Source: Deltaproteobacteria bacterium (lineage in GTDB: Bacteria; Desulfobacterota; Binatia; UBA1149; SPBQ01). Taken from it: 64,000 nucleotides of DNA. Where the stretch lies: NCBI GenBank assembly GCA_029262375.1, contig JAJCZM010000046.1, positions 1,367-65,366 of the forward strand, read 5' to 3'. The position numbers and the translations under genes are program-made. Of the stretch, positions 35,615 to 62,639 are shown one piece after another (within the stretch, counting starts at the first letter, position 1; each line of letters opens with the position of its first letter). Under the pieces are notes generated by a model that saw nothing but the letters and a program-made list of their open reading frames with translations, made no database searches and was not told the DNA's origin.

Positions 35615-36994
35615 ATGAAGCACCTGTTCACCGCCGCCCTCACTCTACTTCTTCTCGCCACAACATCTCTCACCGCCTCAGCGTCGAACTGCGGTCAGCC
35701 CGTCAGTGACGGCGACGCCCCGCGAGCCGTCGACGCGCTGCACATTCTGCGTTCCTCGGTCGGAGATCGTGATTGCACGCTCAGGGCCTGCGACGTAAAC
35801 GGCGACTGCCGCGTCAGTGCCGGCGATGCCCTGCGGACCCTGTCAGCTGCCGTGGGCTTCAACTCCGGCGGCTACTGCGACGCCGAATGCCCGGCCGAGA
35901 AACGCTGCGAATCCTCCGGCGCCCCCATGTGCAACGGCACGTGCCCCGCCGGTTACGTCTGCACGGCCGATCTCACCGACGAGGTCGAGCCGGACGTGCG
36001 CGCGACGATCTGCCACGTGCCGCCTGGGAACCCTGAGAACGCGCACAGTCTGCTCGTGGGACTCGATGCGGTTGCCGCTCACCTGGCACATGGAGACTAC
36101 CTCGGGCCCTGCGACAACGACGGCCGCTTCGAGGCCGATCACAAGCGCGACAAGGATCACGACAGCGACTCAGATTCCGACAGCGACAGCGACTCCGATT
36201 CTGACGACAACGAGTTCGTAGAGTGCATCTGCGAACCGCGCATGGTCTCCACGACGACGCTGCCGGTCGCAACGACGACCACGACGACGCTCGACGAGGC
36301 AACGACGACGACGACCACGACTACGACCTCGACCACACTCGAGGCCGGTGACGATTCGGACAACGACGGTCTCGGCGACGACGTCGATCCGTGTAACGAC
36401 GATGCTCGCAACGCCTGCTTCGGCGAGGCCGCCGTCGACGCAGCAACGGGGAACGTCATCCGCATCAATGCGAACCCCTCAACCAGCGACGAATGCGCGG
36501 GCGAGCGTGTCGATTGCAACGGGCAGACCTGGAACGCCGACTTCGGCTTCAACGACGCGGGCGACGGCAACGGCGCGTGCTCGCTAGGCGGCGGCGAGCC
36601 GAACTGTGTGATCACCGGAATCACAGAGATATTCGGGTGCGAAGACGATGCGACCGAAGATCTGCTGCAATGCGAGCACTTCGACCGACCGGCCGACCCG
36701 GAACTCAGATACTCCTTCAACGTGCCCAACGGCAGCTACCTCGTGAACCTCTTGTTCGCGAACACGTTCGAAGAAACGGCCGCGCCGGGCGCCCGCGTCT
36801 TCGCCATCACGGTCGAGGGCAATGTCGTTTACCCCGCGTTCGACCAGGTGGTCGCGGCGGGCGGCAGCGGGCGCGCGGTAGTGCGATCGGTTGTGGTTTC
36901 GGTCGACGACGGTGACGGTCTGTCGATCGAATTCGGGCACATCACACAAAACCCAAGCGTGAAAGCCATCGAAATTCTCGTGGCAACTCCATGA
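35615..36994 (+). CDS. Secreted modular protein with signal peptide, Cys-bracketed dockerin-like module, CHxPPGNP..AHLAHGD motif, SD-repeat, poly-Thr linker, TSP3-like Ca site and malectin-like domain
   Basis: Signal peptide MKHLFTAALTLLLLATTSLTASA. Dockerin-like CDVNGDCRVSAGDALRTLSAAVG. Linkers DSDSDSDSDSDSDSD and TTTTTTTTTS. TSP3-like DDSDNDGLGDDVDPC. Malectin-like IRINAN...YSFNVPNGSYLVNLLFANTF...GARVFAITVEGNVV...DGDGLSIEF...PSVKAIEIL. Confidence 0.8.
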   Translation: MKHLFTAALTLLLLATTSLTASASNCGQPVSDGDAPRAVDALHILRSSVGDRDCTLRACDVNGDCRVSAGDALRTLSAAVGFNSGGYCDAECPAEKRCESSGAPMCNGTCPAGYVCTADLTDEVEPDVRATICHVPPGNPENAHSLLVGLDAVAAHLAHGDYLGPCDNDGRFEADHKRDKDHDSDSDSDSDSDSDSDDNEFVECICEPRMVSTTTLPVATTTTTTLDEATTTTTTTTTSTTLEAGDDSDNDGLGDDVDPCNDDARNACFGEAAVDAATGNVIRINANPSTSDECAGERVDCNGQTWNADFGFNDAGDGNGACSLGGGEPNCVITGITEIFGCEDDATEDLLQCEHFDRPADPELRYSFNVPNGSYLVNLLFANTFEETAAPGARVFAITVEGNVVYPAFDQVVAAGGSGRAVVRSVVVSVDDGDGLSIEFGHITQNPSVKAIEILVATP

Positions 36995-37015
36995 TTACGT
37001 TGTAGTTAGCGCGCG

Positions 37016-37042
37016 CAGGCCCCGTGAGTGCACGGGTGCCTG
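37016..37042 (+). terminator. Hairpin downstream of gene 35615-36994 (terminator-like)
   Basis: CAGGCCCCGTG agtg CACGGG(t)GCCTG, followed by an A/T-richer stretch. Confidence 0.45.
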
Positions 37043-37123
37043 TGCTAAGTAAAGTTTACCGCAGGCATTCTGGATGGGACTCTGTTGGGGTGGCTAGCTC
37101 TTCGTAGGGCTGCCTCCACCTAA

Positions 37124-38428
37124 ATGCAGAGAAATTTTGCCGCAGCCATCGTCTTCGAATGTCTGCTTGCGTGCTTCGTCACGCTCCTACATCCAACCCA
37201 CGGCCAAGCCGGCTGTGGCACTCCGGTGAGTGGACAGTCTTCGCCCCGGGCTACCGACGCGTTGCGCATCCTGAGCGCATCGGTGGGCACGTCGACTTGC
37301 ACGCTCGGGTCTTGCGACGTCAACCGCGACTGCGTCATCAGTGCCAGCGACGCACTCAACACGCTCCTGGCCGCGATCGGTACGCCTGCCATGCTCGATT
37401 GCAGCGCGGCCTGTCCGAGCCCGACGCCCTGCGAAAGCGCGGCCTCGAACATCTGCAACGGCACTTGCCCCTACGGCATGGCCTGCGCCGCTTCTGAGAG
37501 CAGCAGTCTGGCTCCCGACCCGCGTGTCACCGTCTGCCACGGTGTACCTCGGCGAACCTCCACCGTACCGCTCGGCGCGCTCGACGATCATCTTGCTCAC
37601 GGTGATGCCCTGCGCGCCTGTGAACAAGCGAATTCGCAAAGCGCTGCGCCCGTTCTCAGCAACTCGCTTGGCGGCGCCTCGGGCACGGTGAGTGCGTGCA
37701 GCTGCGTGGTGGTAGAGGTTCCCACTACCACCACCACCACCACGAGTACCTCGACATCCGTCACATTGCCGGCCGCTCCGGCCGACGACAGCGACAACGA
37801 CGGGCTCGTTGATAGCGAAGACCCCTGCCCCACCGAGCCACTCAACGAGTGTTTCGGCCACGTCGCCATCGACACGAGCACACAGTTGCCCGTACGTCTG
37901 AACGCCAATGCCGCCGACCTCACCGAATGCGGCGGCAACCGCATCGATTGCACCGGCCGCGTCTGGCTCGCCGACTTTGGCTACAACAAGCGATTCACCG
38001 GTTCGGATTGCGACATCAATATCGCCGGCCAAGGCTGCTCGATCAGGAACACGTCCGACATCTTCGGCTGCTCTAACAAATCGACGGAGGACGTTCTGCT
38101 CTGCGAGCACTTCGATCGTGCCCCCGAGCCAAACCTCATCTATTCCTTTAACGTCCCTAACGGCCGCTACCTGGTGAATTTCCTGTTCGCCAACACGTTC
38201 AAGGAAACTCGCACCGTGGGGAGCCGACTATTCAACGTCGCCATCGAGGGGGCGATCGTCCTGGAGAACTTCGACCAAGTCGCGACTGCCGGCGGTAGCC
38301 GGATCGCAATCGTTCGGTCTATCGTCGTAGAGATCTCCGACGGCGACGGAATGCAGATCGAATTCGGACATGTCGTCGAGAATCCGACGGTAAAGGCCAT
38401 CGAGATCCTCACTAATTCCGCCTTCTGA
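37124..38428 (+). CDS. Secreted dockerin-like + malectin-like protein (paralog of 35615-36994)
   Basis: Same order of modules as the upstream gene: CGTPVSGQSSPRATDALRILSASVG...CDVNRDCVISASDALNTLLAAIG, VCHGVP...DDHLAHGDALRAC, TTTTTTTSTSTS, DDSDNDGLVDSEDPC, VRLNAN...YSFNVPNGRYLVNFLFANTF...VKAIEIL. Confidence 0.8.
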   Translation: MQRNFAAAIVFECLLACFVTLLHPTHGQAGCGTPVSGQSSPRATDALRILSASVGTSTCTLGSCDVNRDCVISASDALNTLLAAIGTPAMLDCSAACPSPTPCESAASNICNGTCPYGMACAASESSSLAPDPRVTVCHGVPRRTSTVPLGALDDHLAHGDALRACEQANSQSAAPVLSNSLGGASGTVSACSCVVVEVPTTTTTTTSTSTSVTLPAAPADDSDNDGLVDSEDPCPTEPLNECFGHVAIDTSTQLPVRLNANAADLTECGGNRIDCTGRVWLADFGYNKRFTGSDCDINIAGQGCSIRNTSDIFGCSNKSTEDVLLCEHFDRAPEPNLIYSFNVPNGRYLVNFLFANTFKETRTVGSRLFNVAIEGAIVLENFDQVATAGGSRIAIVRSIVVEISDGDGMQIEFGHVVENPTVKAIEILTNSAF

Positions 38429-38700
38429 GCGAACCGCAACGGCAATGCCTGCGCGTCTGCTTCGCCGTTCGCCCTACACTAGTGCGCAACACGGACGTCA
38501 AAGCGGCGGCCGAGTGTCATCAGCGTGGCGCAGGCGTCTACCTCCGCCTTAGAAAAGTCGCGGAAAACACAGATGTCAGGCCTACGTTCTTCCGGCCGCA
38601 TCTTTGCTCTACTAGCCCCGCTCGGCCCATTCAGGTCGAAGCCCACAAGGGAAAGCTCATCACCAACGCCGAGAGCGTGTGACGAGGGGGAACACTAGGG

Positions 38701-41310
38701 ATGCACAATTTGTTGCGCAAGATCATGACACTGACCGCCATTGCGGCAGTGATTACACTAACACTCGCTCCACGAGTCGAGGCCGCATGCGGCGACTTCG
38801 ACGGCAGCGGTTCGGTCACAGCGACCGATGCCCTGGGGATTCTGAGCACCGCGGTCGGCATCTCCGACTGTGCAATGGCTCGCTGCGATATCGATTCTAG
38901 TGGCGCCGTCACTGCAACCGATGCACTCGCGGTGCTTGGCAGCGCGGTTGGCCAGCCAATATCGCTGGTTTGCCCCGGAGTGGCGGTCACCCAAATCAGT
39001 GAGCTCCCTCGTGCCACAGGCGCGGTGGTTCCGGCTGACAACGCGGCCGGCTTTACCGCCAGCCTCGCCGAAGGTGATGCCCCGAGCGGTATTCTTCTGG
39101 GAGCGATCAGCGAGAACTTCGGAGCTGGGAGCTCAATGGCAGCTTGCCAGATCGCCAACATGACGAGCATTGCCATGACGTCGGCCGCCGAGGCCGACAA
39201 AATCCTTTGCTACATCCAAGCGGCATTCGACGGCATCGAGTCGCTCGAAGGCGGCACGATCGACATCTACGACGGCGAGTACCACACATTGGCACTCGAC
39301 ATCATCAACGATGACTTCGGTCCCGGCGGCCCGGGCGGTCCTGGCGGTCCAGGCGGCGGCGGTCCCAGCCTGATCAAGATGAAGCTCGAACGCAGCGGCG
39401 AGTCGATCACCGGCTTCGAACTGTTCGCATGCGAAGATCGCGACGGCGAGTCCGTTCAGAGCGAGTACATCAGCCAGAACATCAGCAGCACCGACTTCTC
39501 GATGGTCGCCAAAGGCCTGCGCGAAGACGACTGGGGCAGCAACGCCCACCAAGTCGTGGTCAACGGCGACCTCAATGACGCCGGCCTGTTCGTCGGCACC
39601 AAGCTGATCACGATGAGTTACTCGAGCGCATGGGGTGAGGAAGCCGAAGGCTATGGTCGCATGGTAGTCGGCCAAGGCGCCGGCACACTCGACCTTGACG
39701 GCTTCGATGCGGGATCGCACCAGAATCCTTTCGAGGACGAGGAACAGGTCTACTCGCACCGAGTAACCTCGGATGCAGAACTCTACGACCACAACGTTGC
39801 AGGCGACGACTACGAGATCGGCCTGCTGGCGATTGGCACGGGCGCGGCAAAGATCGGCTCGCGCCACGGTACGCGCTATTCCTGGCAAGACTTCACCGAG
39901 GTCGAAGGTTGGGACGGCGAGACCACGCTGATCGACTACGATCTCGCGGAAGCTTTCGTGGATCTCGTACTTGATACCGACCTGCCTGAGGTCGAGGACG
40001 TAGAAATCGCGTTCGCCGAAACGGAGTCTTTCGGCTGCGACGAGGCGCCCGAGGCCACCGTCACGATCGACATGGCGGTGACGCAGACGATGTGTAACCA
40101 CCTCGAACTCGAGAAGGAATGGTTCGACTGTTGGAACACAGTCAACGGTAACGGCGGTCCCGTCGGTGAGCCCGGCCCCGGCCCTGGTCCCGGTCCCGGC
40201 GACGGCGGCCCCCCGCTCTGCGAAGGTGAAGGCTGCAGTTGCTCCGAAGCCGGCATTTGCGGCGGACAAGCCCCCGGCGGTTGTTGGTGCGATGCGGCGT
40301 GCTTCGATAGCGGCGACTGCTGCTTCGATGCCTGCGACACCTGCGGGTCCTGCGGCGGCGGCGGCGGATGCCCGCCTGAAGACCCGAATTGTGGCGGCGG
40401 ATGCCCGCCCGAAGACCCGAACTGTGGCGGCGGCAAATGCGGCGACGGCTACTGCGAGGAGTGGGAAGACGGCTGGAACTGTCCGGAGGACTGCGGATTG
40501 CCTTGCGATCCTTCGGTCGATCCCGACTGTTTCCCGTCCTGCGACCCGAGTGTAGATCCCGACTGCTTCATGCCGTGTGAGCCTGGTGATCCGGAGTGCT
40601 TCCCGGGATGCCCGCCTGAGGACCCCGCTTGCGACGCCTACTTCTGCGGTGACGGCCTTTGCGACGTCGGCGAAGATGGTTGGAACTGTCCGGAAGATTG
40701 CGGTCAAGCCTGCCCTCCCGGCGACAGCAGCTGCGAGCCGCAGTGCAATCCGGACATCGACCCACAGTGTGCGCCCAGCGACTGCGGTGACGGTCACTGC
40801 GACGAGTACGAAGACGAGTGGAGTTGCCCGATGGACTGCAGCGACGGCACCGGTTGCGATCCGGCGACCGATCCGGATTGCGGCCCCCCGCCCTGCGGCG
40901 ATGGCTACTGCGATCCGGGCGAGGACGACTGGAGTTGCCCGATGGATTGCGGCGACGGCACCGGCTGCGATCCGGCGACCGATCCCAATTGCGGACCTCC
41001 GCCCTGCGGCGACGGGATCTGTGAGCCGGGCGAGGACGACTGGAGTTGCCCGAGCGACTGCAGCTTCGATCCGGGTTGCGATCCGGCGACCGATCCCAAC
41101 TGCGGTGTCGCGGCCTGCGGCGACGGCTACTGCGAGCCCGGTGAGGACGAGTTGAACTGCCCGAGCGATTGCAGCTTCGATCCGGGTTGCGATCCGGCGA
41201 CCGATCCCAACTGCGTACCGCCGCCTGCCGACCACTGCGGAGACGGCGTCTGCGATCCGGCATGGGATGAGGGGGAGGCCAACTGTCCGGTCGATTGCGG
41301 CCCGCAGTAG
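38701..41310 (+). CDS. Large secreted protein with a canonical-looking double dockerin-like module, an unassigned ~400-aa central region and a C-terminal array of Cys-rich mini-modules
   Basis: Signal peptide. CGDFDGSGSVTATDALGILSTAVG...CDIDSSGAVTATDALAVLGSAVG has two DxDxSGxxxxxD loops each followed by a DAL helix. GPGG/GPGP linkers are present. A GAGGGGG SD lies upstream. Confidence 0.8.
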   Translation: MHNLLRKIMTLTAIAAVITLTLAPRVEAACGDFDGSGSVTATDALGILSTAVGISDCAMARCDIDSSGAVTATDALAVLGSAVGQPISLVCPGVAVTQISELPRATGAVVPADNAAGFTASLAEGDAPSGILLGAISENFGAGSSMAACQIANMTSIAMTSAAEADKILCYIQAAFDGIESLEGGTIDIYDGEYHTLALDIINDDFGPGGPGGPGGPGGGGPSLIKMKLERSGESITGFELFACEDRDGESVQSEYISQNISSTDFSMVAKGLREDDWGSNAHQVVVNGDLNDAGLFVGTKLITMSYSSAWGEEAEGYGRMVVGQGAGTLDLDGFDAGSHQNPFEDEEQVYSHRVTSDAELYDHNVAGDDYEIGLLAIGTGAAKIGSRHGTRYSWQDFTEVEGWDGETTLIDYDLAEAFVDLVLDTDLPEVEDVEIAFAETESFGCDEAPEATVTIDMAVTQTMCNHLELEKEWFDCWNTVNGNGGPVGEPGPGPGPGPGDGGPPLCEGEGCSCSEAGICGGQAPGGCWCDAACFDSGDCCFDACDTCGSCGGGGGCPPEDPNCGGGCPPEDPNCGGGKCGDGYCEEWEDGWNCPEDCGLPCDPSVDPDCFPSCDPSVDPDCFMPCEPGDPECFPGCPPEDPACDAYFCGDGLCDVGEDGWNCPEDCGQACPPGDSSCEPQCNPDIDPQCAPSDCGDGHCDEYEDEWSCPMDCSDGTGCDPATDPDCGPPPCGDGYCDPGEDDWSCPMDCGDGTGCDPATDPNCGPPPCGDGICEPGEDDWSCPSDCSFDPGCDPATDPNCGVAACGDGYCEPGEDELNCPSDCSFDPGCDPATDPNCVPPPADHCGDGVCDPAWDEGEANCPVDCGPQ
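40200..41307 (+). repeat. Cys-rich repeat array with 7 copies of CGDGxCxxxE(D/E)xxxCPxDC, interleaved with CDPATDPxC, CDPSVDPDCF and CPPEDPNCGGG units
   Basis: Read from the translation: CGDGYCEEWEDGWNCPEDCG, CGDGLCDVGEDGWNCPEDCG, CGDGHCDEYEDEWSCPMDCS, CGDGYCDPGEDDWSCPMDCG, CGDGICEPGEDDWSCPSDCS, CGDGYCEPGEDELNCPSDCS, CGDGVCDPAWDEGEANCPVDCG. Confidence 0.85.
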
Positions 41311-41376
41311 CGCGCAACGAACTGAGAGGGGTGTAGCCATCGGCTTCCGAGCCGCCTGACTACCTAGCCCGCCAAC

Positions 41377-41416
41377 GGGCGGTGCTCCACACGAGCACCG
41401 CCCGTTTTTCTTTTTG
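41377..41416 (+). terminator. Rho-independent terminator after gene 38701-41310
   Basis: Perfect 11-bp stem GGGCGGTGCTC cacac GAGCACCGCCC, followed by gTTTTTcTTTTTg. Confidence 0.85.
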
Positions 41417-41432
41417 TGCTAACCTATGCGGG

Positions 41433-42578
41433 ATGCGCCGCGCCGGACGGACCGTAGTATTCCTCGTATTCCTGGTCGCGGCGGCGACCTGGTCATCGAG
41501 TTCGATGTTCGCTCTGGGCAACATCGTGCATCCCGACCGCCCTGTCATGGCGGTGACCGTTCCGAGCGCACTGGTCCGGCCCCTCAACACTCTCGCGATC
41601 CACAGCAGACGACCCCGCTCGATTTCCGTAGCGCTGCTGAGCGATTCGACGGCGATCGCTTACCCCGAGGGCAAGCGTATCCACGATCGCTTGTCGCAAA
41701 ATCTCGCCTCTCGCTGGACAGGCCGAGCATCCGTCTACGTTGCGTCGCTCAGTTCCTTGGGCATGACGCCGGCGGGCTTCTACCTCCTAGCCGATCCGAT
41801 CACGGCTGCGCATCCCGATGTCGCGATCGTGACCTTCAATCTCGGGCTGGCGCGTAGTCGGCTTGCCGCCAGCCTGCAGCGTCCCGAGTTGGCGGGCTGG
41901 GTGCTTGCGCGCCGCTGGTGGCAGACGCTGATTGAGCTCGACCTGCATAAATATGGTGTCACCGCAGACCGCCTTCTCCTGTACCGCCTCTTCGTGCTCA
42001 GCGGTCAGACAAGTCGCTGGCTCGAGCAGAGCTCGCAGCAGGCACGGCTGGGAGCTTTGCGCCAAGCGGTAGAACAACTGTTTGCAGATCGATTCGACTT
42101 CACGGGCGACCTCGCCGCACGCCGAGCGCGCGCGACGCTCACCTACATGGAGGAGATGGCGCCGGGTTTGCCCCCGCGTCGCAGCGCGCGAAGCGCACAA
42201 CGGTACTACAGCGAAGTCATGGACGGACTCAGCGAAGACCACTGGGTCGCCGAGATAACTCGCGCGCTACTACAACAACTCGCACGCGCCGGCACACAGA
42301 CAATTCTCTACGTTCCGCCCATCAATGTAGAGTACGCGAAGTCGCTCGGAGCTTACGATGAGGCCGGTATTGGGAGAACGCTCGCAATGCTCGAGCAGTT
42401 GGCGCTCGATACGGGAGCAGAGTTCGCCGACCTGCACGACTTACTTCCGGATGTAGCGTTTCGCGATACCGGCGGGCATTTCACGCACGAACCACCGTAC
42501 GACGGTCCACAACTGGTCGCTGAAGCCTTGACCCCGTACGTCGAGCTTCTGGTGCGAGACGTGTCCACGAATCGCTGA
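41433..42578 (+). CDS. Membrane-anchored SGNH/DltD/AlgJ-like putative O-acyltransferase partner
   Basis: N-terminal anchor. VALLSDSTA resembles block I (GDS) and RDTGGHFT resembles block V (DxxH). Its stop overlaps the MBOAT start by 1 nt. Start trimmed to 41433, downstream of the terminator. Confidence 0.5.
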   Translation: MRRAGRTVVFLVFLVAAATWSSSSMFALGNIVHPDRPVMAVTVPSALVRPLNTLAIHSRRPRSISVALLSDSTAIAYPEGKRIHDRLSQNLASRWTGRASVYVASLSSLGMTPAGFYLLADPITAAHPDVAIVTFNLGLARSRLAASLQRPELAGWVLARRWWQTLIELDLHKYGVTADRLLLYRLFVLSGQTSRWLEQSSQQARLGALRQAVEQLFADRFDFTGDLAARRARATLTYMEEMAPGLPPRRSARSAQRYYSEVMDGLSEDHWVAEITRALLQQLARAGTQTILYVPPINVEYAKSLGAYDEAGIGRTLAMLEQLALDTGAEFADLHDLLPDVAFRDTGGHFTHEPPYDGPQLVAEALTPYVELLVRDVSTNR

Positions 42579-44002
42579 TGCTTTTCAATACGCTACAGTA
42601 TGCGCTCTTCCTCGGCCTGGTGCTGCTCGGCCTACGCGTGCTTCCGGCGCGCATGCGCACCGGCTTACTGCTGGTGGCAAGCATCCTGTTTTACGCACTC
42701 TGGCTGCCGGCGTACCTGATCCTGCTACTGGTAGACCTCGGCGTGAACTATGCGTTGCTGCGCGCGATGCTCGTCGGCAAGCGACCGCGCGCGTACCTCA
42801 CGGCGTCGGTCGTGTTCACCCTCGGGCTACTCGCATGCTTCAAGTACGCCGCATTCGTGATCGAATCGCTGCTTGCCGTTCTTCCGGCCGTCGGACTGAG
42901 CGGTCTAGCGACCGCTTGGTCGCCCGATCTACCCGACTTCTTTTTGCCTCTCGGGATTTCCTTCTACAGTTTCCAGATGATCGCGCTCGCGGTGGACACG
43001 TATCGGCGCGACATCGAACCGGTAGAGAGCTTCTCTCGCTACGTGCTGTTCATTTCGTTCTTCCCGCAGCTCATCGCCGGGCCGATTCTACGCGGAGCGG
43101 AAATGCTGCCGCAGCTCGCGCGCGGCGGCGAGATGACACCGCAGCGCACGCGTCGTGGCGGCTGGCTGCTGGTGTCGGGGCTTCTCAAGAAAGTGGTGTT
43201 CGCAGACTATCTGCTCGCGCCGTTTGTCGACGATGCCTTCGGCGCACCCGCTGTCGGGTCGGCCGCGTATCACTTGATCGTAACGTACAGCTTCGCTTTT
43301 CAGATCTACTTCGATTTCTCCGGCTATGTAGACATGGCGCGAGGGTCGGCACTACTGATGGGCTTCGAGATCCCGACCAATTTTCTCGAGCCATACCTCT
43401 CGCGCAATCCGGCTGAGTTCTGGCGACGCTGGCACATCACGCTCTCCACTTGGTTGCGCGACTACCTCTACATAGCACTAGGCGGCAATCGTCTCTCGGC
43501 CGCACGAACCTACTTTAACCTGTTCGCAACGATGCTACTGGGCGGACTGTGGCACGGCGCCGCTTGGACGTTCGTCATTTGGGGCGGCCTGCACGGAGTC
43601 CTGCTGGCAGGCCATCGCCTGATGGGCGGAACCGCCGGCGACATCGATCGGCCGATCACGCTGCGCGACCTTCCGGGCCTGCTGTTCACCGCCCACGCAG
43701 CGGCACTTCTGTTCGCCGTGTTTCGGGCGCCAACGGTCGGCGACGCCGGTCTGTTCTTCTCGGGCTTCATGACCATGGACTTCCTGTCGGGATGGCCGGC
43801 GGTCCAGACGATCATCGTTGTGGTGTGTATCGGCTCGCATCTCGTCGAGCGCGCGGTTCGCCCCCGAGTGGGCCGACTCCAGCAACTAGCGGCCCACACG
43901 GCCTGGGGCCCTGCCGTAGAGGGCACGCTGGCCGGCCTACTGATCGGACTCGCCTACGCCGTTGCCGGCGCCGGCGGCGAGTTCATCTACTTCCAGTTTT
44001 AA
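42578..44002 (+). CDS. MBOAT family O-acyltransferase (AlgI/DltB/PatA-like)
   Basis: MLFNTLQYALFL..., FWRRWHITLSTWLRDYLYIALGGNR with the conserved His, and GGLWHGAAWTFVIWG. Confidence 0.9.
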   Translation: MLFNTLQYALFLGLVLLGLRVLPARMRTGLLLVASILFYALWLPAYLILLLVDLGVNYALLRAMLVGKRPRAYLTASVVFTLGLLACFKYAAFVIESLLAVLPAVGLSGLATAWSPDLPDFFLPLGISFYSFQMIALAVDTYRRDIEPVESFSRYVLFISFFPQLIAGPILRGAEMLPQLARGGEMTPQRTRRGGWLLVSGLLKKVVFADYLLAPFVDDAFGAPAVGSAAYHLIVTYSFAFQIYFDFSGYVDMARGSALLMGFEIPTNFLEPYLSRNPAEFWRRWHITLSTWLRDYLYIALGGNRLSAARTYFNLFATMLLGGLWHGAAWTFVIWGGLHGVLLAGHRLMGGTAGDIDRPITLRDLPGLLFTAHAAALLFAVFRAPTVGDAGLFFSGFMTMDFLSGWPAVQTIIVVVCIGSHLVERAVRPRVGRLQQLAAHTAWGPAVEGTLAGLLIGLAYAVAGAGGEFIYFQF

Positions 44003-44108: not shown

Positions 44109-44741
44109 ATGGCCATTCGACTCGGAGACGAGGCACCCAATTTTCAAGCCGACAGCACCGAAGGAAGGATCGACTTCCACGAATTCATCGGCGACGGCTG
44201 GTGCGTACTCTTTTCGCACCCAAAGGACTTCACGCCGGTTTGCACCACGGAACTCGGCTACATGGCCAGCATCAAGCCGGAGTTCGATAAACGGGGCGTA
44301 AAGATCATCGGACTCAGCGTCGATCCCGTCGCCGATCACGTGAAGTGGTCGAAAGACATCGAAGAGACCCAAGGCACTGCGCCTAACTATCCGCTGCTTG
44401 CCGATCCGGATCGCAAAGTCGCAGACCTGTACGACATGATCCACCCGAACGCGCTCGACACGCTCACCGTACGTTCCGTGTTCGTGATCGGCCCCGATAA
44501 GAAGGTCAAGCTCATGCTCACCTACCCCGCGAGCACCGGCCGCAACTTCGACGAGATCGTGCGGGTGATCGACTCGCTTCAGCTGACGGCGAAGCATCAG
44601 GTCGCCACACCCGTCAACTGGAAGGACGGCGAAGACGTCATCATCGTACCGGCGCTTTCCGACGAAGACGCGAAGAAGAAATTCCCGAACGGATGGAAGA
44701 CGCTCAAGCCGTACCTGCGTCTCGTTCCCGACCCACGCTAA
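44109..44741 (+). CDS. 1-Cys peroxiredoxin (Prx6 type)
   Basis: GDEAPNFQADST...WCVLFSHPKDFTPVCTTELG. An AGGAGG SD lies upstream. Confidence 0.9.
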   Translation: MAIRLGDEAPNFQADSTEGRIDFHEFIGDGWCVLFSHPKDFTPVCTTELGYMASIKPEFDKRGVKIIGLSVDPVADHVKWSKDIEETQGTAPNYPLLADPDRKVADLYDMIHPNALDTLTVRSVFVIGPDKKVKLMLTYPASTGRNFDEIVRVIDSLQLTAKHQVATPVNWKDGEDVIIVPALSDEDAKKKFPNGWKTLKPYLRLVPDPR

Positions 44742-44814
44742 CGCAACCTGCACGACAGCAGCTGCCATGGTCCCGCATTGCCGCGGGGCCATGGCCCGGA
44801 CTCCCGAGACCCCG

Positions 44815-45330: not shown

Positions 45331-45373
45331 GCGTGGCTTGTGTCGGTCTGCGACGGGGTCTAGTGCTGGCCGT

Positions 45374-48551: not shown

Positions 48552-48575
48552 GACCAGCCAAGATTTACGAAGAAC

Positions 48576-48650: not shown

Positions 48651-48670
48651 GTCGGCCTTAGTCGGCCTTA
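48651..48670. repeat. 10-bp tandem repeat gtcggcctta x2 (plus a diverged third copy) spanning the stop codon
   Basis: The minus strand reads ...AAGGGTGAC TAA GGCCGAC TAA GGCCGAC TAG. Confidence 0.85.
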
Positions 48671-53727: not shown

Positions 53728-55908
53728 TTAGATCTGCTCCTCGTAGAGCATGGTCGTGGAAGTCGTGGGTGGCTCGACGATCGTGGTTGACGTACTCGTC
53801 GATGTCGTTGTGGACGTGCTCGATGTCTCGCACGTCCCCATCTCGATGACGATGTCGTCGATAGCACCCGAGCCGAACAGGCTCACGATCATCGACCAAA
53901 CGCCCTCGACGCGGTCGAACTCGACGACGGTAACGCCGTTGTTGCCGACCTGCGGCAACGCGACCGAGCTGAGCAACTCGCCCTCGGCGCCGTACAGTTC
54001 GACGACCGCCGGATCTTCGGTGGTCTCGACGTCGAGCAGCCTGAGCGACTTGACGACAACCGGCCCGATGGCCGTGAAGTCGAGATGCGTTGCTACCGGG
54101 CGTGCGTTGCCCTGGTCAGACGGATTGTCGACCAAGCCGTCGGCCGGAGCGACGTCGATCAGGTTGTGGGCGACGATCAGAATGTTGCCCTGCGCGACCG
54201 AGTTCTCGAACTCGGCGCCGGCTTCACCGCCGACACCGATGCCGGGGCCGTCGAACGTCTCGTTCGGTGTACCGAGATCGTCGTCGCCACCGCTGCAGCT
54301 CCCTGACGAACATGCGCTGTCGTAGATCACTGCAGCATTGTCGCCGGGAAGACGCTCGATGTTGTCACCGTACACGCCGACCGGGCCCATGCCGCCATCA
54401 CAGTAGACTTCCGAAAGGATCGTGCCTTCAGCGTGCCCCTCGAAGCTGATGACATCGACCGAGCCAGCGGCCATGCCGTCGTAGGCACAAGCATCGACTT
54501 CCTCATCGCACCGATCTTGCGTGCACTCGTCGTCGTCGGAGCAAGCGGGCGCCTCACCGGCGCTGCAGCCCAGCTCGGCGTCGCAGCGTTCCTCGCCGTT
54601 GCAGAACTGGCCGTCGTCGCAGACAAGCGCCTCGCCCGCCAAGCAGCCGAGCTCGGCGTCGCAGGTCTCTTCACCATTGCAGACGTCGTTGTCGCTACAC
54701 GCGACCGGGCCGTAGGTGCAGCCTTGGTCTTGGGAGCACGAATCAACTGTACAGGCATCGCCGTCATTGCAGTCCATAGCCGCGTGGGCGCACCCCTCGA
54801 GCGCATCGCAGCTATCGACGGTGCAGTTGTCCTCGTCGTCGCAAACGAGCGCAGCGCCGGCCATGCAGCCCGCAGCCGCGTCACACGACTCGTCGCCGTT
54901 GCAGACGTCGCCATCGTTGCAGACCAGAGGCTCGCCTTCGACACAGCCCGACTCCGGGTCGCAGCTCTCCATACCGTTGCAGACGTCGCCGTCATCGCAG
55001 CTGATGGGCTCGTTAAGGCAACCGCCCTCGGCCGAACAGCTATCCATGGTACAAGCGTTGCCGTCGTCGCACTCGACGGCGCTGTGGCTGCAGCCCTCGA
55101 CGGGATCACAGCTATCGACCGTGCAGTCGTCGAGATCCTCGCAGGGCGCGGCGTCGCCGTCGATACAGCCGAGCTCGGCATCACAGTCTTCGACGCCGTT
55201 ACACACATCGCCGTCGTCGCAGACGAGCGCTTCGCCTTCGACGCAACCGGCGCTCGGATCGCAGGTCTCAGTACCGTTGCAGGTGTTGCCGTCGTCGCAG
55301 ACGATCGGCTCGTTGCTGCAACCGTCGGAGTCGTCGCAGAGATCGTCGGTACAGGCGTTGCCGTCATCGCAATCGCGCGGAGCGGCTTCGACACAACCGG
55401 ACGTCGCATCGCAGGTCTCTTCGCCGTTACAGACGTTTTGGTCGTCGCACTGCAGTGCTTCGCCTTCCATGCAGCCCGACTGCGGATCGCAGGTCTCGGC
55501 GCCGTTGCACACGTCGCCGTCGTCGCACATCACGGCGTCGCTCATGCATTCGCCGGGACACAAGATGTTCGACTGCAAGCCGATGGCGCCGGCCATGACG
55601 CGCAACGCGTCCGTGGCACAGACCACGCCGTTCGAGTCGACGTCGCAAACCGCGGGGCGGCAGGAACTCGATAGGCCGGTGCCAAAACGCAGTATATGCA
55701 GCGCGTCGCTGGCCGTCAGAGCGCCGGACTCATTCGGATCACCGCACATGCCGTCGGCAATGAAGCAGGTATCGGTCGTGCAAGCATTGTCGTCGTTACA
55801 GTCGACGGCGGTGTCACAGGGGATGAAGGTTGGCTGGGCCCACGCGGGCGTCGCCATGAACAAGGTCAGCGCGGCCGCGGCGACATAGCGTAATACTGGG
55901 TAATTCAT
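53728..55908 (-). CDS. Secreted protein with ~15 four-Cys repeats (CDDGxxCNGxExCDxxxGC / CDDGNACTxDxCxxxxGC), an embedded dockerin-like module, an unassigned C-terminal domain and a Ser/Thr tail
   Basis: Signal peptide MNYPVLRYVAAAALTLFMATPAWA. Dockerin-like CGDPNESGALTASDALHILRFGTG...CDVDSNGVVCATDALRVMAGAIG. The repeat units were counted by eye. Confidence 0.8.
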   Translation of the reverse strand: MNYPVLRYVAAAALTLFMATPAWAQPTFIPCDTAVDCNDDNACTTDTCFIADGMCGDPNESGALTASDALHILRFGTGLSSSCRPAVCDVDSNGVVCATDALRVMAGAIGLQSNILCPGECMSDAVMCDDGDVCNGAETCDPQSGCMEGEALQCDDQNVCNGEETCDATSGCVEAAPRDCDDGNACTDDLCDDSDGCSNEPIVCDDGNTCNGTETCDPSAGCVEGEALVCDDGDVCNGVEDCDAELGCIDGDAAPCEDLDDCTVDSCDPVEGCSHSAVECDDGNACTMDSCSAEGGCLNEPISCDDGDVCNGMESCDPESGCVEGEPLVCNDGDVCNGDESCDAAAGCMAGAALVCDDEDNCTVDSCDALEGCAHAAMDCNDGDACTVDSCSQDQGCTYGPVACSDNDVCNGEETCDAELGCLAGEALVCDDGQFCNGEERCDAELGCSAGEAPACSDDDECTQDRCDEEVDACAYDGMAAGSVDVISFEGHAEGTILSEVYCDGGMGPVGVYGDNIERLPGDNAAVIYDSACSSGSCSGGDDDLGTPNETFDGPGIGVGGEAGAEFENSVAQGNILIVAHNLIDVAPADGLVDNPSDQGNARPVATHLDFTAIGPVVVKSLRLLDVETTEDPAVVELYGAEGELLSSVALPQVGNNGVTVVEFDRVEGVWSMIVSLFGSGAIDDIVIEMGTCETSSTSTTTSTSTSTTIVEPPTTSTTMLYEEQI

Positions 55909-56043: not shown

Positions 56044-56116
56044 CCGCGCCGGTTCTACGACGCGCTGCGCCTGCCACCCGAAAGGGGGGTACAAGCGGTG
56101 CAAGTGGGTGGGCGGG

Positions 56117-57856
56117 TCAGTCGCTCTTGGCCTTGAACGACTCGCCTTCGTTCTTCCTCACGCCGACCCCGGAGAACGACGCCGACCAGCAGATTCCCGA
56201 ATCCGAATGCAGTTGAACCTCCACCGGAAGCGCCGTTGGAAGCGGCGGGAGCACCGGCAGCGTGAGCGCTTTGCCATCGGCTTTGAGCTTGAGCTTCGCC
56301 TTGGCATCGATGCCCACACCGAGTCTGAGCTGCGAGACCCCGTGCGGCGTCAGCAGCTTGTCCTTATATAGATAGCCCTTCGCGCCGGGCGGATTGCCTT
56401 TCGCGCGCCAGCAATCCTTCGAATTCGCACAGATGTCTCCGGCCGGGATTTCGGCTTCGAACACAATCGCAGGCGCGCCCGAGGTATCGAACACGCACAG
56501 CCTCAACGAATCGCTCACTGTGGGATCGCCGTAATCGGCGGCATCGGTCTGCTCGCCCACCCATCTGAAATCCAAGCGATCGAGCGTGTCGGGACTGCGA
56601 TCTCTGAACGAGAACTGTGCCTTGCCGGAAGCGAGGGGCTCTCTGCAATCGGCGCGCGGCACGACGATACCGGTGCACTCGCCCGCCCCATCGCACTCGC
56701 CTACGGCGCAAAGACTGCCTTCGAGCGCGCACGAGGTAGCGGCCGCCTCGACCGTGCAGTCGGCGGCGCAGCAATCGCCGTTGGTTCGATTGCCGTCGTC
56801 GCATTGCTCGCCGCAATCGAGTCGGCCATTGCCGCAGCCGAGCCACAGCGCCATCGCGTTGCCCTCCGCCTGGAAGTTCTCGGCCGGATCGTTCCACGGA
56901 TCGGCACCCTTATCGCCAAGCCAGCCATACGGATCGATCACGTTGGCAGCACTGGATTCCGGACTGCCCGCGGGCGGATGCCGCCGTACCTCGAAGTGCA
57001 GATGCGGCGCGAACGTGCCGAAGTTCCCGACGGTACCGACCTGCTGGCCGGCAACCACCGGCGCGCATTGCCCGACGAGTAGATCGGTCAGCGGGTTGCC
57101 GCCTGTATCGGTCCCCGCGAGATCGGCGGCGTGCAGGTACCACGACGCGTAGCCGTGATCTCCCACCACGCCATGGTCGATGTAGAACGTATGAAACTTC
57201 TCCCACCCGCTCGACGCACCGAAGTGACCGTTGATGGGGTCCTCCTGTGCCTTGCAGAGACTGCCGTCGGCGGTGGCCACGAGCGGCGTCCCCGCCTGGT
57301 AGCGATAGTCGTAGCCGGCGTGGCTCGCGTAACTGAGCACGCTCGGATTCGACAGCGCACCTTCGTAGTTCCCGTTGACCACGTACGAGGAGCCGTCGGC
57401 GCTGTAGTAGCCGCAGATGCACAGCGTGTTGAGAAAACACGCCGGGAAGTCGGGCTCCGCCGGGCACAGTTCATTGACGACACCGCGCTCGGCACTCTCG
57501 CCCGTGTAGGCCGTGATCTGCGTATCGCAGCAGCGTTGGTAGAACGGCCCGGTGTGATCCATCACCGAGATCATCGGCGCCGAGTACGCGTCTTGGCCGA
57601 GCCAGTCGACCGGAAACGCTGGAAGAATAAAGCCGTCGCCGCAAACACCCGAGTGGCATTGTTCCGGACCGGTACAAGGATCGGCGTCGTCGCAATCGTC
57701 GTTCGTCACGCAGGCCGGGCCGGCGTATGCCGGCGGCGCCCACAGCGCGGCCGGCTGAAGAACAGCCAACGCAAGGGCACCAACGACGGCGAGCATCTGC
57801 GCGACCTGCGCGCCCCGCACGATCCACGCTCTCCTTTTCAGGCTGGTCGGCCGCAT
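56117..57856 (-). CDS. Secreted M23 (LytM-type) metallopeptidase with Cys-rich N-terminal region, one Myxococcus-type Cys-rich repeat and the shared FKAKSD C-terminal domain
   Basis: HxxxD as SHAGYDY and HxH as APHLHFEV. Cys-rich repeat CGNGRLDCGEQCDDGNRTNGDCCAADC. The C-terminal ~177 aa are homologous to 48671-49207. The ATG is at 57856; the track used TTG 57859. Confidence 0.8.
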   Translation of the reverse strand: MRPTSLKRRAWIVRGAQVAQMLAVVGALALAVLQPAALWAPPAYAGPACVTNDDCDDADPCTGPEQCHSGVCGDGFILPAFPVDWLGQDAYSAPMISVMDHTGPFYQRCCDTQITAYTGESAERGVVNELCPAEPDFPACFLNTLCICGYYSADGSSYVVNGNYEGALSNPSVLSYASHAGYDYRYQAGTPLVATADGSLCKAQEDPINGHFGASSGWEKFHTFYIDHGVVGDHGYASWYLHAADLAGTDTGGNPLTDLLVGQCAPVVAGQQVGTVGNFGTFAPHLHFEVRRHPPAGSPESSAANVIDPYGWLGDKGADPWNDPAENFQAEGNAMALWLGCGNGRLDCGEQCDDGNRTNGDCCAADCTVEAAATSCALEGSLCAVGECDGAGECTGIVVPRADCREPLASGKAQFSFRDRSPDTLDRLDFRWVGEQTDAADYGDPTVSDSLRLCVFDTSGAPAIVFEAEIPAGDICANSKDCWRAKGNPPGAKGYLYKDKLLTPHGVSQLRLGVGIDAKAKLKLKADGKALTLPVLPPLPTALPVEVQLHSDSGICWSASFSGVGVRKNEGESFKAKSD

Positions 57857-57984
57857 CAAGTCGAGAGTGAATCGCCGAGGCAGTCTAAGTCAAGATGGGA
57901 TCGTGCCTTGCGAATCCCGACGGCGCCTCACATGGTGGCGCGAACGCGGACCCAAGCGGGCCAACCGAGGCGCGACGAGACGAA

Positions 57985-60011: not shown

Positions 60012-60020
60012 CCCGAGTGC

Positions 60021-62639
60021 TTAGTCGACCGGCGCGAGACAAGCCATGGCGCTGCACACATCTACAACCGCACCGCCCGTCTTCAGGAACTCCGATTTCT
60101 GCGTGCGCGCTGCCGGCTGGCGTCGCGGGCACTCGTGCGGATCGGAACCATGGTTCATCGCACACAGCTGAAGATCGGCCCATTCGGGATCGGCAGGAAC
60201 AATCGTGCTCGGCTCGATGTTACCGATCGGAGGCGCCGGGTTGCCGCTGTCATAGATGACGAGCGCAGAGCCGTCATACGGGTACGACGTGATCGGCGGG
60301 ATGTCGTAGTACGGAGTCACCTCGGGCACGACCTTGCCGACCGACAGCGTCGGCGTATGAATCAGCGCGCCCGTCGAGCGGGCCGCGATCTCTGCCGTCA
60401 CCGGCGCGACCTGATGATCGCCGAACGCCACTTGGGAGAGCAGCTTCTTCGCCGGCGTGCCGGGGTACGGATCCGCAGTCACGTGATTGATGTGCCCGCT
60501 CGGATCGGTGCGGTCCCACAGGATCTGCGCGGTGGCAAACAGCACGCTGCGATCGAGCGAGCTCGGATAGGCATTGGCAAGCGTCACACCGAACGCGCTG
60601 AAATCAACGCTTCGGTTGAGCAGCGTGCTGTAGTTGATGCCGGGTACGCCGAGCACGAACCGCTCGATGTCTTGAGAGATGGCAGCCAACACACCGCCGA
60701 GGATGCCTCCTTGGCTGTTACCGTCATAGAAGAGTTCGCTCGGATCGATGACCGACTGACCGCCGACCTGGAACGCCGGGTCGCTGGCGAAACCGGAGAG
60801 GTGCGTCATCAAACGACCGAGAAATTGGAAATTGAGGACGCCCTGGTGCTGCCGATCGATGAACGCCGGGAACGCCGAGAAGTTATTGAGAATACCGAGC
60901 ACAACCAACGTGTCTTCGTTGGCGAAGCCCGTCCAATCCGTGCCGCACATCACGAAGTTGTGCTCGCTCGAGAAATCGCGAACGTGACTGGAACTGGTCT
61001 GGCCGCCCGTACCCAGCAGACCGTGACCGTACAGTGACGGACGCGCGGGAACCGCGGGTGCGAAGCCGCCGGTCGTCGCGGCGTAAGGGATGATGCAGCG
61101 ATAGGTCGCGGTGAAGAAGTCCCCCGTGTTAAACGGCACCTGATCATCGTCCACGCGCAACGTCGATCCCGGAACACCGCCGAGGGTCATATAGAGAGGC
61201 ACCTGATAGGTCCCCTCGACCATACGGAAGATGTTGGCGTCGAGCGGTTCGGTGATCGTGTCTACGGTGAAGGCCGGCGCCGCTGCGCCCAAGATGTTGT
61301 CGAAAGCGTCGTCGCGCATCGCCAGGTGGCGACTCGACGTGCTCTCGTCGCTCTGCGTGGTGAAATCCCAAGCCAGGTAGAGATCGCCGCGCGTGATGCC
61401 GAAGCCTTCGAGCGTCGTGAAGAGCTCTTCCATATGCGCACGGTGCGCTTCGACCGGCACGAGACCGGTGGGAGTATTGTCGCGATAGGCCGCAAACGTG
61501 GGGCTCGATGCCAACGTCACACCGCCGGCGTCTTTCACGCCGCGCATCGCAACGATGTAACGACGACCGTTGATGAGATTCTTGCCGACTCGACCAATGA
61601 GTGCCTGATCGGCGGCCGTCGCGCCGCGCTGATCACGTTCCATCCAGATCAGCTGCTGATCGCCGGTAAGCGCATCGACCAGCACGACCGGAGCGCTCGG
61701 AACGAGCGAAGCCGCCAGGTCGGTGATCGGAGTTGCGCCCGTCATGGCCAGATCGACGTCTTCGTTCGCGGTCAGTAGCATCGGGCCGATGCTGAAGCCG
61801 TCGGCAAGATTCCATTGATCGGGAAGGACCGGATCGCCCGAATCGTTGGCCGGTAGCGCGCCCGGTCCGAAGTTGAGTCGACGACCGCTCGGCGTACTCG
61901 TATCGGGAAGGCTGAAGTAATCGTTGGGGAACGGGAAGAGGCAGCGCGTGTCGTCGGTGGGATCGCAGATCGAAGCAACCGACGACGGGATTTGATCGAC
62001 GGCGGCATCGGCGAACGCCGCGTCGCTGTAACCGGTGAGCGCTGAGAGATCCACACAGAGCTTGCCCAGCTTGGCAGTGGCCTTGGCGGCGAGCTTGGCG
62101 ATGTCGGCCTGCACGTCAACCGTGTCGCATGCGGCGCCGCCGCATTTGCCGAGCAGCTTGGCCCCCTTGCTGATGGTCTTGCCGGCTTCTTTGCCCGCCT
62201 TCTGCAGGCACTTCTTGCCGTCGGCATCGGCAGCCGTGTAGTTCGAGCCATCGGGAGCGAACGTGCGCTTGACGGCTGCAAGGGCATGCCGTTCGCAGAC
62301 ATCGTTCATGTGGTCGCTCAACTCGGTGGGCGTCAGCGGGCCGTAACCGGCCGCGGCAATCGTGGGCTCGTCGAAGCAAGCCTTTTCAATCTTCTTCTTG
62401 GATGCCGCGTAGGTCGCCGGAATTTTCGGATCGAAGATGCACGCCGCGTCGGTCTTCTTGTAGCATTTCACGTGAGTCCCGACGATTTTCTTCACGCACG
62501 ACGACGACGACTTCGCGATGGTCTGTCCGCATTTTACGTCGGGTGTGGTGGCGGCGTATGTCGCCGGCGCAGCGAGCGCGAGAGAAAGGCCCATGCCAAG
62601 CGCGAGCGAGAAGGAGAGCTTGAATCCATAGTGCGACAT
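60021..62639 (-). CDS. Large secreted putative serine hydrolase (alpha/beta fold) with Lys/Cys-rich helical N-terminal region
   Basis: Signal peptide MSHYGFKLSFSLALGMGLSLALAAPATYA. KC..I.K/KKC..K spacing occurs in the first ~200 aa. Nucleophile elbow FYDGNSQGGILGG. Candidate acid/His AFGDHQV. Start trimmed to ATG 62639. Confidence 0.6.
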   Translation of the reverse strand: MSHYGFKLSFSLALGMGLSLALAAPATYAATTPDVKCGQTIAKSSSSCVKKIVGTHVKCYKKTDAACIFDPKIPATYAASKKKIEKACFDEPTIAAAGYGPLTPTELSDHMNDVCERHALAAVKRTFAPDGSNYTAADADGKKCLQKAGKEAGKTISKGAKLLGKCGGAACDTVDVQADIAKLAAKATAKLGKLCVDLSALTGYSDAAFADAAVDQIPSSVASICDPTDDTRCLFPFPNDYFSLPDTSTPSGRRLNFGPGALPANDSGDPVLPDQWNLADGFSIGPMLLTANEDVDLAMTGATPITDLAASLVPSAPVVLVDALTGDQQLIWMERDQRGATAADQALIGRVGKNLINGRRYIVAMRGVKDAGGVTLASSPTFAAYRDNTPTGLVPVEAHRAHMEELFTTLEGFGITRGDLYLAWDFTTQSDESTSSRHLAMRDDAFDNILGAAAPAFTVDTITEPLDANIFRMVEGTYQVPLYMTLGGVPGSTLRVDDDQVPFNTGDFFTATYRCIIPYAATTGGFAPAVPARPSLYGHGLLGTGGQTSSSHVRDFSSEHNFVMCGTDWTGFANEDTLVVLGILNNFSAFPAFIDRQHQGVLNFQFLGRLMTHLSGFASDPAFQVGGQSVIDPSELFYDGNSQGGILGGVLAAISQDIERFVLGVPGINYSTLLNRSVDFSAFGVTLANAYPSSLDRSVLFATAQILWDRTDPSGHINHVTADPYPGTPAKKLLSQVAFGDHQVAPVTAEIAARSTGALIHTPTLSVGKVVPEVTPYYDIPPITSYPYDGSALVIYDSGNPAPPIGNIEPSTIVPADPEWADLQLCAMNHGSDPHECPRRQPAARTQKSEFLKTGGAVVDVCSAMACLAPVD

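Follow-up and report, generated by a model that had tools for sequence, protein, structure and literature searches.

The stretch of DNA analysed here, referred to as the window, comprises 64,000 nucleotides of a Deltaproteobacteria bacterium of the Binatia (contig JAJCZM010000046.1 of assembly GCA_029262375.1, positions 1,367 to 65,366 of the forward strand). A preliminary description of the window, drawn from its letters alone, singled out seven secreted proteins between 35.6 and 62.6 kb that seemed to share modules combinatorially, and suggested that they belong to one glycan-binding, Ca- and disulfide-stabilised extracellular apparatus. We label the seven open reading frames (ORFs) A to G and refer to the ~180-residue C-terminal domain of D and F as the FKAK C-terminal domain (CTD). 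All seven ORFs are present at the positions given for them (Table 1), and each begins with what reads by eye as a signal sequence, basic, then hydrophobic, then AxA-like. The starts proposed for B, E and G are also those of the public gene calls, and the public 590-residue call for D fits the start proposed for it. All seven proteins lack a hydrophobic helix at the C-terminal end, and NCBIfam returned no PEP-CTERM, MYXO-CTERM or LPXTG-type match. A lipoprotein reading of the A/xCG N-termini was rejected by eye: in B and C, Q or E occupies position -3 of the supposed lipobox, and in A the Cys does not lie at +1. The Cys content of the secreted mosaic proteins is 2-10%. G+C content is ~63% along the whole window, and no tRNA genes were found in it.

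The proteins were compared all against all by BLASTP with composition correction, and three types of link emerged. A and B, encoded in tandem, are paralogous over their full length (45% identity over 462 columns, E = 5e-117). Any two of A, B, C and E are joined by a ~65-residue dockerin-like module at or near the mature N-terminus (E = 3e-7 to 4e-12), and D is homologous to F over the final ~185 residues (32% identity, E = 2e-17). G gave no significant BLASTP match to A-F. Therefore the module network has six members, and the combinatorial sharing claimed for seven proteins stands for all but G. Most of the module counts in the preliminary description were borne out: the dockerin-like module is found in four proteins, the C-terminal domain with its FKAK(G/S)D motif in two, and malectin domains (PF11721) likewise in two, with 48.3 bits for A and 51.8 bits for B against a Pfam cutoff of 23. 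Three kinds of Cys-rich repeat are indeed distributed over three proteins, as an array in C, Dicty_CTDC repeats in E (Pfam, 82.9 bits, 5 matched stretches) and one TIGR02232 myxo_disulf_rpt repeat in F (NCBIfam). The single peptidase is F, with a Peptidase_M23 domain (PF01551) at 39.2 bits against a cutoff of 28.7 and with the zinc motifs HxxxD (HAGYD) and HxH (HLH) intact by eye. Other claims stood in part. Four proteins, A, B, D and E, do have Thr-rich runs, but the run in E is a C-terminal tail and not a linker. The TSP3-like site DDSDNDGLxDxxDPC can be read directly in A and B, but has no significant Pfam match. Similarly, G does carry the GNSQG motif behind its description as a putative serine hydrolase, but matches nothing in Pfam, NCBIfam or the PDB.

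The dockerin-like module is supported by profile, sequence and structure comparisons. Dockerin_1 (PF00404) matched C with 27.2 bits, above the cutoff of 22.9, and E with 20.1 bits, below it; A and B had no Dockerin_1 match in Pfam at E<=0.01. A sequence search of the PDB aligned the module of C with the dockerin of C. thermocellum Xyn10B (1ohz_B, E = 0.002). The most divergent module, that of A, was modelled by AlphaFold2 (AF2) from a 58-sequence alignment, yielding a model with a predicted local distance difference test score (pLDDT) of 88.8 and helices at residues 15-25, 33-36 and 46-56. When this model was compared with the PDB by Foldseek, ranks 1-24 were all cellulosomal dockerins, at template modelling (TM) scores of 0.56-0.70 and root-mean-square deviations of 1.7-3.2 A, with E-values of only 0.02-3 because the domain is small. 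Since the most divergent module folds as a dockerin in the model, the fold assignment holds for A, B, C and E, which are thus predicted to share the dockerin fold, a duplicated loop-helix F-hand pair. By reading of the alignment, with D/N at positions 1, 3 and 5 and D at position 12 taken as the mark of a Ca-binding loop, C and E keep both Ca loops, and A and B keep only the second, the first being degenerate (PVSDGDAPRAVD / PVSGQSSPRATD). Four Cys flanking the two dockerin repeats are invariant across six aligned sequences. Several metagenomic homologs of the module carry PF00404; the search that yielded them returned only fragments of 38-114 residues, from which architectures are not inferable.

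The FKAK CTD proved to be a far larger family than the two copies in the window. A profile of the D and F domains retrieved 63 proteins in a word-indexed search and, in an exhaustive search, 7,771 representatives (50% identity) at E<=1e-3, 6,609 of them at E<=1e-10. Among the best 146 proteins the domain ends <=3 residues from the C-terminus in 131, with the terminal consensus Q-F-K-A-K-[GSA]-[DP]. A scan of species-representative genomes, built on 9 closer sequences and sampling only copies that carry [TI]CGTKPCW, gave 47 loci, mostly in Candidatus Binatia and "Deltaproteobacteria" metagenome-assembled genomes (MAGs), with a few in Polyangiaceae and other lineages and up to four per MAG. The proteins encoded at these loci have 500-1400 residues, with the domain at or close to the end, and many begin with a signal-peptide-like sequence; most of the genomes that carry the domain are MAGs of free-living soil or sediment bacteria. 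It is found on diverse passengers, namely disintegrin (8/42) and CBM96 (6/42) domains, and also ephrin-receptor-like, sortilin/Vps10, SRCR, TNFR Cys-rich, lysyl oxidase, FG-GAP, lactonase and PepX_C domains. A reelin subrepeat and a proprotein convertase P-domain are further eukaryote-like passengers in the 42-protein alignment. The median isoelectric point (pI) is ~9.1 for the CTD against ~4.1 for the passengers, and the CTD is the more basic part in 38/42. Dicty_CTDC-type repeats, as in E, and Cys-rich repeats like that of F also lie directly upstream of the CTD in FKAK CTD proteins of other organisms. Therefore, the mixing and matching of modules is a property of the wider secretome and not of this locus.

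The domain carries six conserved or nearly conserved Cys, and its AF2 model, built from 29 sequences, is all-beta with 13 strands (pLDDT 95.1, predicted TM score 0.90). Foldseek against the PDB returned only generic Ig-like noise (best E = 0.011, TM <= 0.35), a profile search found no sequence relative in the PDB, and 29 diverse members (D, F and 27 others) had no match in Pfam or NCBIfam. The family is very large and concentrated in Binatia, and to judge by Pfam-A (2025 copy), NCBIfam release 20 and the PDB it is undescribed; our literature search on C-terminal domains of Binatia found nothing relevant. Two or three FKAK CTD genes stand in tandem at L021 (6851-19367), L033, L039, L040 and L045, and the family seems to expand by local duplication. 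At L021 there are three consecutive ORFs of the FKAKG(D/P) type, of about 1,230-1,500 residues. Within 10 kb of the 47 loci we found no conserved transporter or sortase-like gene; the only recurrent neighbour families are generic histidine kinases, besides the synteny inside one orthologous group. The D domain has its closest relative (75% identity) at L004 (2010-5410), in a fusion with a CHRD domain, on a contig (PJEL010004859.1, GCA_003358065.1) from the assembly of a Globobulimina foraminifer (PMC6783311). There it adjoins a protein whose dockerin-like module is C-terminal, not N-terminal, together with two Lcl_C proteins.

As a check, the preliminary description proposed asking whether the module families co-occur and cluster in related genomes. 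The closest relative, L054, was found by a metagenome scan with the MBOAT protein encoded downstream of C, to which its own MBOAT is 79% identical. L054 is collinear with the window from 24.3 kb (alpha/beta hydrolase) to 31.4 kb (SelR), that is over six genes with 63-86% amino acid identity. In L054 SelR is followed directly by the SGNH-like gene (57%) and MBOAT, and the ~10-kb block of a PAS histidine kinase, a GT4-family glycosyltransferase, A, B and C is absent. Since L054 is collinear on both flanks without the block, the block is an insertion or a deletion; no repeats or signs of mobile elements were seen at its borders. Moreover, the SGNH-like and MBOAT genes are also adjacent in L052 and L053, as they are in L054, and the acyltransferase pair is inherited independently of the block. 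A terminator-like hairpin directly 3' of C, with a 100% complementary stem, separates A-B-C from this pair and marks the same boundary as the edge of the block.

Nor do the modules keep company elsewhere. The only other member of the A/B family with usable context, a B homolog (L002/L003), is isolated among unrelated metabolic genes, with YceI, carboxyltransferase, DUF72 and the like around it. Dockerin-like and FKAK CTD modules are missing from all 80 MBOAT loci, and of the 47 FKAK CTD loci only two are counted as having a dockerin-like module: L029, where it lies within 10 kb, and L004, which came from a separate look-up. Relatives of the source bacterium turn up in marine-sediment and other environmental metagenomes. 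The check thus went against clustering: the modules are largely independent. Independent, non-co-occurring modules had been named beforehand as refuting the idea of one apparatus, and this is fully what we find for the first half of the region; for D-G no diverged relative was found. The neighbourhood is not co-inherited, and as a "system" the locus is mostly ordinary.

The gene map from 31 to 64 kb gives the same impression of mixed content. It starts with the PAS histidine kinase and the GT4 gene (both -), A, B and C (+) and the perfect 14-bp hairpin with its T-run. The SGNH-like and MBOAT genes (+) come next, with a 1-Cys peroxiredoxin, an ORF, a DsbA-like gene and an alpha/beta-hydrolase-cyclase fusion (+). 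Then follow nitronate monooxygenase (-), D (-), a SnoaL-like gene (-), DoxX (-), an amidohydrolase (+), E (-) and F (-), and finally a glycosyltransferase (+), a class II aldolase (-), G (-) and NYN (+). A-G are spread over at least 4 transcription units, with ~14 genes that have no evident link to them in between; these encode cytoplasmic or membrane proteins (peroxiredoxin, DsbA-like, hydrolase-cyclase, nitronate monooxygenase, SnoaL, DoxX, amidohydrolase, aldolase and others). No 10-mer is common to the regions upstream of the seven genes, and a sigma-70 scan found no promoter-like sites. The three GT-B glycosyltransferases of the preliminary description were all confirmed by profile. Of the O-acylation pair it proposed, the MBOAT stands, and the SGNH-like partner shows only a sub-threshold GDSL match.

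Table 1. Position, strand and make-up of the features discussed, numbered from the first letter of the window
Feature	Position (nt)	Strand	Remarks
A	35615-36994	+	459 residues; signal peptide, Cys-clamped module of predicted dockerin fold (35690-35890), Cys-rich CHV...AHLxHGD region, acidic Asp/Ser run, Thr linker, TSP3-like DxDxDG site, malectin domain (about 36656-36946)
B	37124-38428	+	434 residues; same architecture as A; dockerin-like module 37214-37408, malectin domain 37925-38401
C	38701-41310	+	869 residues; signal peptide, dockerin module with two canonical Ca loops (38788-38979), ~400-residue region, Cys-rich repeat array (~40333-41307)
D	48668-50440	-	590 residues; signal peptide, ~350-residue Gly/Pro-rich region, poly-Thr linker, FKAKGD C-terminal domain (48671-49207)
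E	53728-55908	-	726 residues; signal peptide, one Cys repeat, dockerin module with two canonical Ca loops (55546-55746), Dicty_CTDC-type repeats (~54439-55554), ~200-residue domain and Thr-rich tail (residues ~490-726, 53728-54450)
F	56117-57856	-	579 residues; signal peptide, short Cys-rich segment, M23 metallopeptidase (56978-57325), myxo-type Cys repeat, FKAKSD C-terminal domain (56120-56677)
G	60021-62639	-	872 residues; secreted; Cys-containing N-terminal region; GNSQG motif
Block of PAS histidine kinase, GT4, A, B and C (~10 kb)	31409-41406		missing at L054 8567-8841; flank orthologs 57-86% amino acid identity
GT4-family GT-B glycosyltransferase	34043-35440	-	Glycos_transf_1, 101 bits; divergent from A; within the 10-kb block
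Intrinsic-terminator-like hairpin	41374-41406	+	14-bp perfect stem with 10 G-C pairs, then TTTTCTTTTT; directly 3' of C
SGNH-like protein	41433-42578	+	Lipase_GDSL_2 only 17.5 bits, E = 0.006, cutoff 32.9
MBOAT	42578-44002	+	96.8 bits; start overlaps stop of SGNH-like gene
GT-B glycosyltransferase	57895/57985-59268	+	Glyco_trans_1_4; divergent from F; 427-residue gene call fits start 57985
GT-B glycosyltransferase, distant third	19697-21076		profile match confirmed

Several further observations concern individual proteins and neighbouring genes. Besides B itself, a search of 5.8 billion proteins for the A/B family, in which Thr-rich words probably saturated the candidate list, returned just two homologs at 47% identity and two partial matches, which makes a tiny family with three members found. 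The motif (T/V)(I/V)CH(V/I/G)... then (A/D/K)HLxHGDxLxxC is conserved in all four family members (A, B, P0065 and P0066); it sits between the dockerin-like module and the Thr linker (~36020-36130 in A, ~37520-37620 in B) and has no profile match. The array of C consists of 37-residue units, CGDGxCxxxEDxWxCPxDC plus CDPATDPNC, with a tandem period of 111 nt and repeats that are 72-77% identical. It holds 7 copies of CGDGxC...CPxDC and 11 spacers of the CxPxxDPxC type, is 8.5% Cys, and matches nothing in Pfam or NCBIfam. D had no Pfam match and, by sequence search, no PDB match. Pfam at relaxed thresholds gave nothing credible for G, D, the middle of C, the C-terminal domain of E or the middle of A, the best match being DUF4082 in E (E = 0.017). 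This weak match falls in the ~200-residue domain of E, which is followed by a Thr/Ser-rich tail, ...TTSTTMLYEEQI. As E ends in this segment, nothing lies downstream for the segment to connect, and it may represent an O-glycosylated stalk or the leftover of a lost C-terminal module. The leader of F (57800-57856) has LKRRAWIV ahead of its hydrophobic stretch, which is twin-arginine-like, and a public gene call starts 12 codons downstream (567 residues). The only homology found for G outside the window is a 38%-identical counterpart of its residues 36-156 (62200-62530) at L044 (2148-2519), ~6 kb upstream of an FKAK CTD gene in a Binatia MAG. The 1-Cys peroxiredoxin, a 187-residue ORF and the DsbA-like oxidoreductase occupy 44109-45988, between the region's two halves, and a DCC1-like thiol-disulfide oxidoreductase is encoded at 9442-10998. 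These thiol oxidoreductase genes, which are present whatever the state of the A-B-C block, may serve Cys-rich exoproteins. The fusion at 46030-47367 joins an alpha/beta hydrolase to an adenylate/guanylate cyclase catalytic domain, and a 53%-identical homolog adjoins an FKAK CTD gene in an Acidobacteriota MAG (L050, 11240-11990).

Taken together, these data make it probable that the region from 35.6 to 62.6 kb is a loose neighbourhood of independent, Sec-exported, disulfide-rich mosaic exoproteins that draw on promiscuous modules typical of the lineage, with no dedicated multi-gene apparatus. Of this, the analysis shows the homology links, the dockerin fold, the near-terminal position of the CTD, its diverse passengers and the lack of conserved synteny. 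Large Cys-rich modular secretomes with non-cellulosomal dockerin-like modules are known in environmental bacteria. In a neighbourhood of this kind, the dockerin-fold EF-hand pair of A, B, C and E would most likely be an address or attachment module, and the basic all-beta CTD of D and F would most likely be another; position, charge and passenger diversity suggest these roles. Malectin domains bind glycans, and the passengers would then contribute glycan binding (A, B), peptidoglycan or peptide hydrolysis by M23 (F) and Cys-rich spacer or adhesion repeats (C, E, F). The dockerin-like module would bind a partner encoded elsewhere, and the basic CTD could either tether its acidic passengers to an anionic polymer of the cell surface or matrix or act as a sorting tag. 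What remains of the apparatus first proposed is a set of secreted, Cys-rich proteins with malectin domains and Ca-loop dockerin folds; that they form one coherent machine is not supported.

Some observations weigh against a merely loose neighbourhood. Four dockerin-like and two FKAK CTD genes are packed into 27 kb, the remaining 37 kb of the window having none, so that module genes look enriched here, as judged within the window only. L004 is a second place where FKAK CTD and dockerin-like genes are co-located, so that genes of this sort may cluster locally to some extent in the near lineage as well. The DsbA-like and peroxiredoxin genes between the two halves could serve disulfide-rich cargo. 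Moreover, synteny with a diverged relative covers only A-C and the acyltransferases, D-G being matched only by the same organism, and the attachment role of both modules is one that we infer.

A rival view takes up the preliminary description: A-G, the glycosyltransferases and the O-acyltransferase pair would be one extracellular matrix or assembly system, in which the glycosyltransferases and MBOAT would build and decorate a glycan, the malectin proteins would bind it and the dockerin-like modules would dock on a cohesin-like scaffold. The genes are close together, A-B-C run in one direction beside the divergent GT4 gene, the malectin domains would supply glycan binders and the dockerin fold was confirmed; a DsbA-like gene lies inside the region, and L004 also pairs a dockerin-like gene with an FKAK CTD gene. 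We nevertheless regard this system as quite unlikely. The A-B-C/GT4/histidine kinase block is an indel relative to L054, which keeps the MBOAT pair, and a terminator-like hairpin stands between C and that pair. A Pfam scan of ~60 window ORFs gave no cohesin match, ~14 unrelated genes lie in between, and G has no shared module. Furthermore, the modules are independent in 127 other loci and the upstream regions have no motif in common. A narrower proposal, which we hold to be unlikely, is that the FKAK(G/S)(D/P) CTD is the recognition signal of a dedicated, undescribed secretion or surface-sorting pathway of Binatia and related lineages, resembling that of the type IX secretion system (T9SS), with D and F as cargos; the clustering with dockerin proteins would then be incidental. 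It would account for the domain's place near the C-terminus in 131/146 proteins, its conserved terminal motif, its thousands of members on diverse and often enzyme- or adhesin-like passengers and its several copies per genome. The signal peptides of these proteins imply a two-step export route, and the domain matches no known domain or fold. However, the 47 loci show no conserved transporter or sortase-like neighbour within 10 kb, and 180 residues with six conserved or nearly conserved Cys make a larger and more elaborate unit than known sorting tags. A structural last strand would equally account for the terminal motif, and the basic pI is just as well explained by a simple binding module (lectin or anchor).

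One may also read the proteins as an arsenal for interaction with a host or prey, that is eukaryote-like adhesion proteins and a lytic M23 enzyme in a symbiont (an associate of sponges or foraminifera) or in a predator of the myxobacterial kind. Predatory Myxococcota typically have both M23 enzymes and myxo-type Cys repeats. Eukaryote-like malectin, TSP3-like and Dicty_CTDC modules are found here, and relatives of the CTD carry disintegrin, ephrin-receptor, SRCR, TNFR, sortilin and lysyl oxidase domains; the closest relative of the D domain comes from the foraminifer assembly. This foraminifer is sediment-dwelling, however, and its assembly may simply contain sediment bacteria, and most FKAK CTD genomes are those of free-living soil or sediment MAGs. 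We consider an arsenal very unlikely; it concerns what the passengers are for, and is in that respect compatible with a neighbourhood of independent mosaic exoproteins.

The wider meaning of the locus would lie in its terminal modules. It is doubtful, though conceivable, that the FKAK CTD marks an undescribed sorting or surface-attachment system of Binatia and related uncultured lineages with thousands of cargos, the Cys-clamped N-terminal dockerin being a second, parallel tag; that the FKAK CTD by itself marks a new sorting or attachment pathway we likewise hold to be unlikely. If true, the logic would be that of T9SS CTDs or PEP-CTERM, with thousands of cargos of which many bear eukaryote-like matrix or adhesion domains. 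Passengers as disparate as disintegrin, CBM96, M23, lysyl oxidase and FG-GAP all carry the near-terminal domain, and signatures of this type have earlier led to sorting pathways. Such a pathway would be of real interest for the biology of the Binatia, which are widespread, uncultured and poorly understood.

The preliminary description could not map the proteins onto a cellulosome, T9SS cargo, PEP-CTERM or an S-layer, and our analysis agrees with this. T9SS C-terminal domains (TIGR04183 / TIGR04131, Bacteroidota) share with the FKAK CTD a beta-rich make-up, a position at the extreme C-terminus of many unrelated Sec-dependent proteins and the occurrence of several cargos per genome. T9SS C-terminal domains are ~80-100 residues long; the FKAK CTD differs in having ~180 residues, about twice that size, with six conserved or nearly conserved Cys, and in belonging to other phyla. 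It has no sequence similarity to them in NCBIfam or Pfam, Foldseek returned no T9SS CTD structure, and no T9SS genes were seen. As for the Cys-rich repeats, F has one repeat of the Cys-rich acidic kind known from Myxococcus (TIGR02232 / DUF4215) and E has those of Dictyostelium CTDC proteins; the array of C (CGDGxC...CPxDC / CDPxxDPxC) matches neither model. The acyltransferase pair resembles the O-acylation pairs of the AlgI/AlgJ type, in which MBOAT is joined to an SGNH-like protein: here MBOAT overlaps an upstream partner with a weak GDSL/SGNH signal, an arrangement conserved in relatives. It differs in that the partner is below the Pfam threshold and the pair is separate from the secreted proteins.

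With type I dockerins (PF00404), the module of A, B, C and E shares two ~22-residue segments, each a DxDxD/N...D Ca-loop followed by a helix, and the AF2 model of the A module superposes only on dockerins, at TM scores up to 0.70. Dockerins are usually C-terminal, and cellulosomal dockerins are not known to have such flanking Cys. In contrast, the module here stands at or near the mature N-terminus, has four conserved flanking Cys and, in A and B, a degenerate first Ca loop. A, B, C and E therefore carry a Cys-clamped, near-N-terminal dockerin subtype, set apart from the cellulosomal one by these features. Neither cohesin nor scaffoldin, which a cohesin-dockerin system would contain, was matched in the scanned window ORFs. 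The passengers are malectin domains and Cys-rich repeats, and Pfam and NCBIfam found no glycoside hydrolase domain in A-G. With no cohesins among the window ORFs scanned and no carbohydrate-active enzymes as passengers, A, B, C and E are not a cellulosome. Our literature search on dockerins in Binatota found nothing relevant. Non-cellulosomal dockerin-like modules reportedly occur across diverse bacteria and archaea. The Cys-clamped N-terminal subtype, fused to malectin or Cys-rich repeats, would widen the range of dockerin-like modules and raises again the question of what non-cellulosomal dockerins bind. Modules of this class, borne by secreted proteins in organisms without a cellulosome or known partner, are the best-fitting relatives of those in A, B, C and E.

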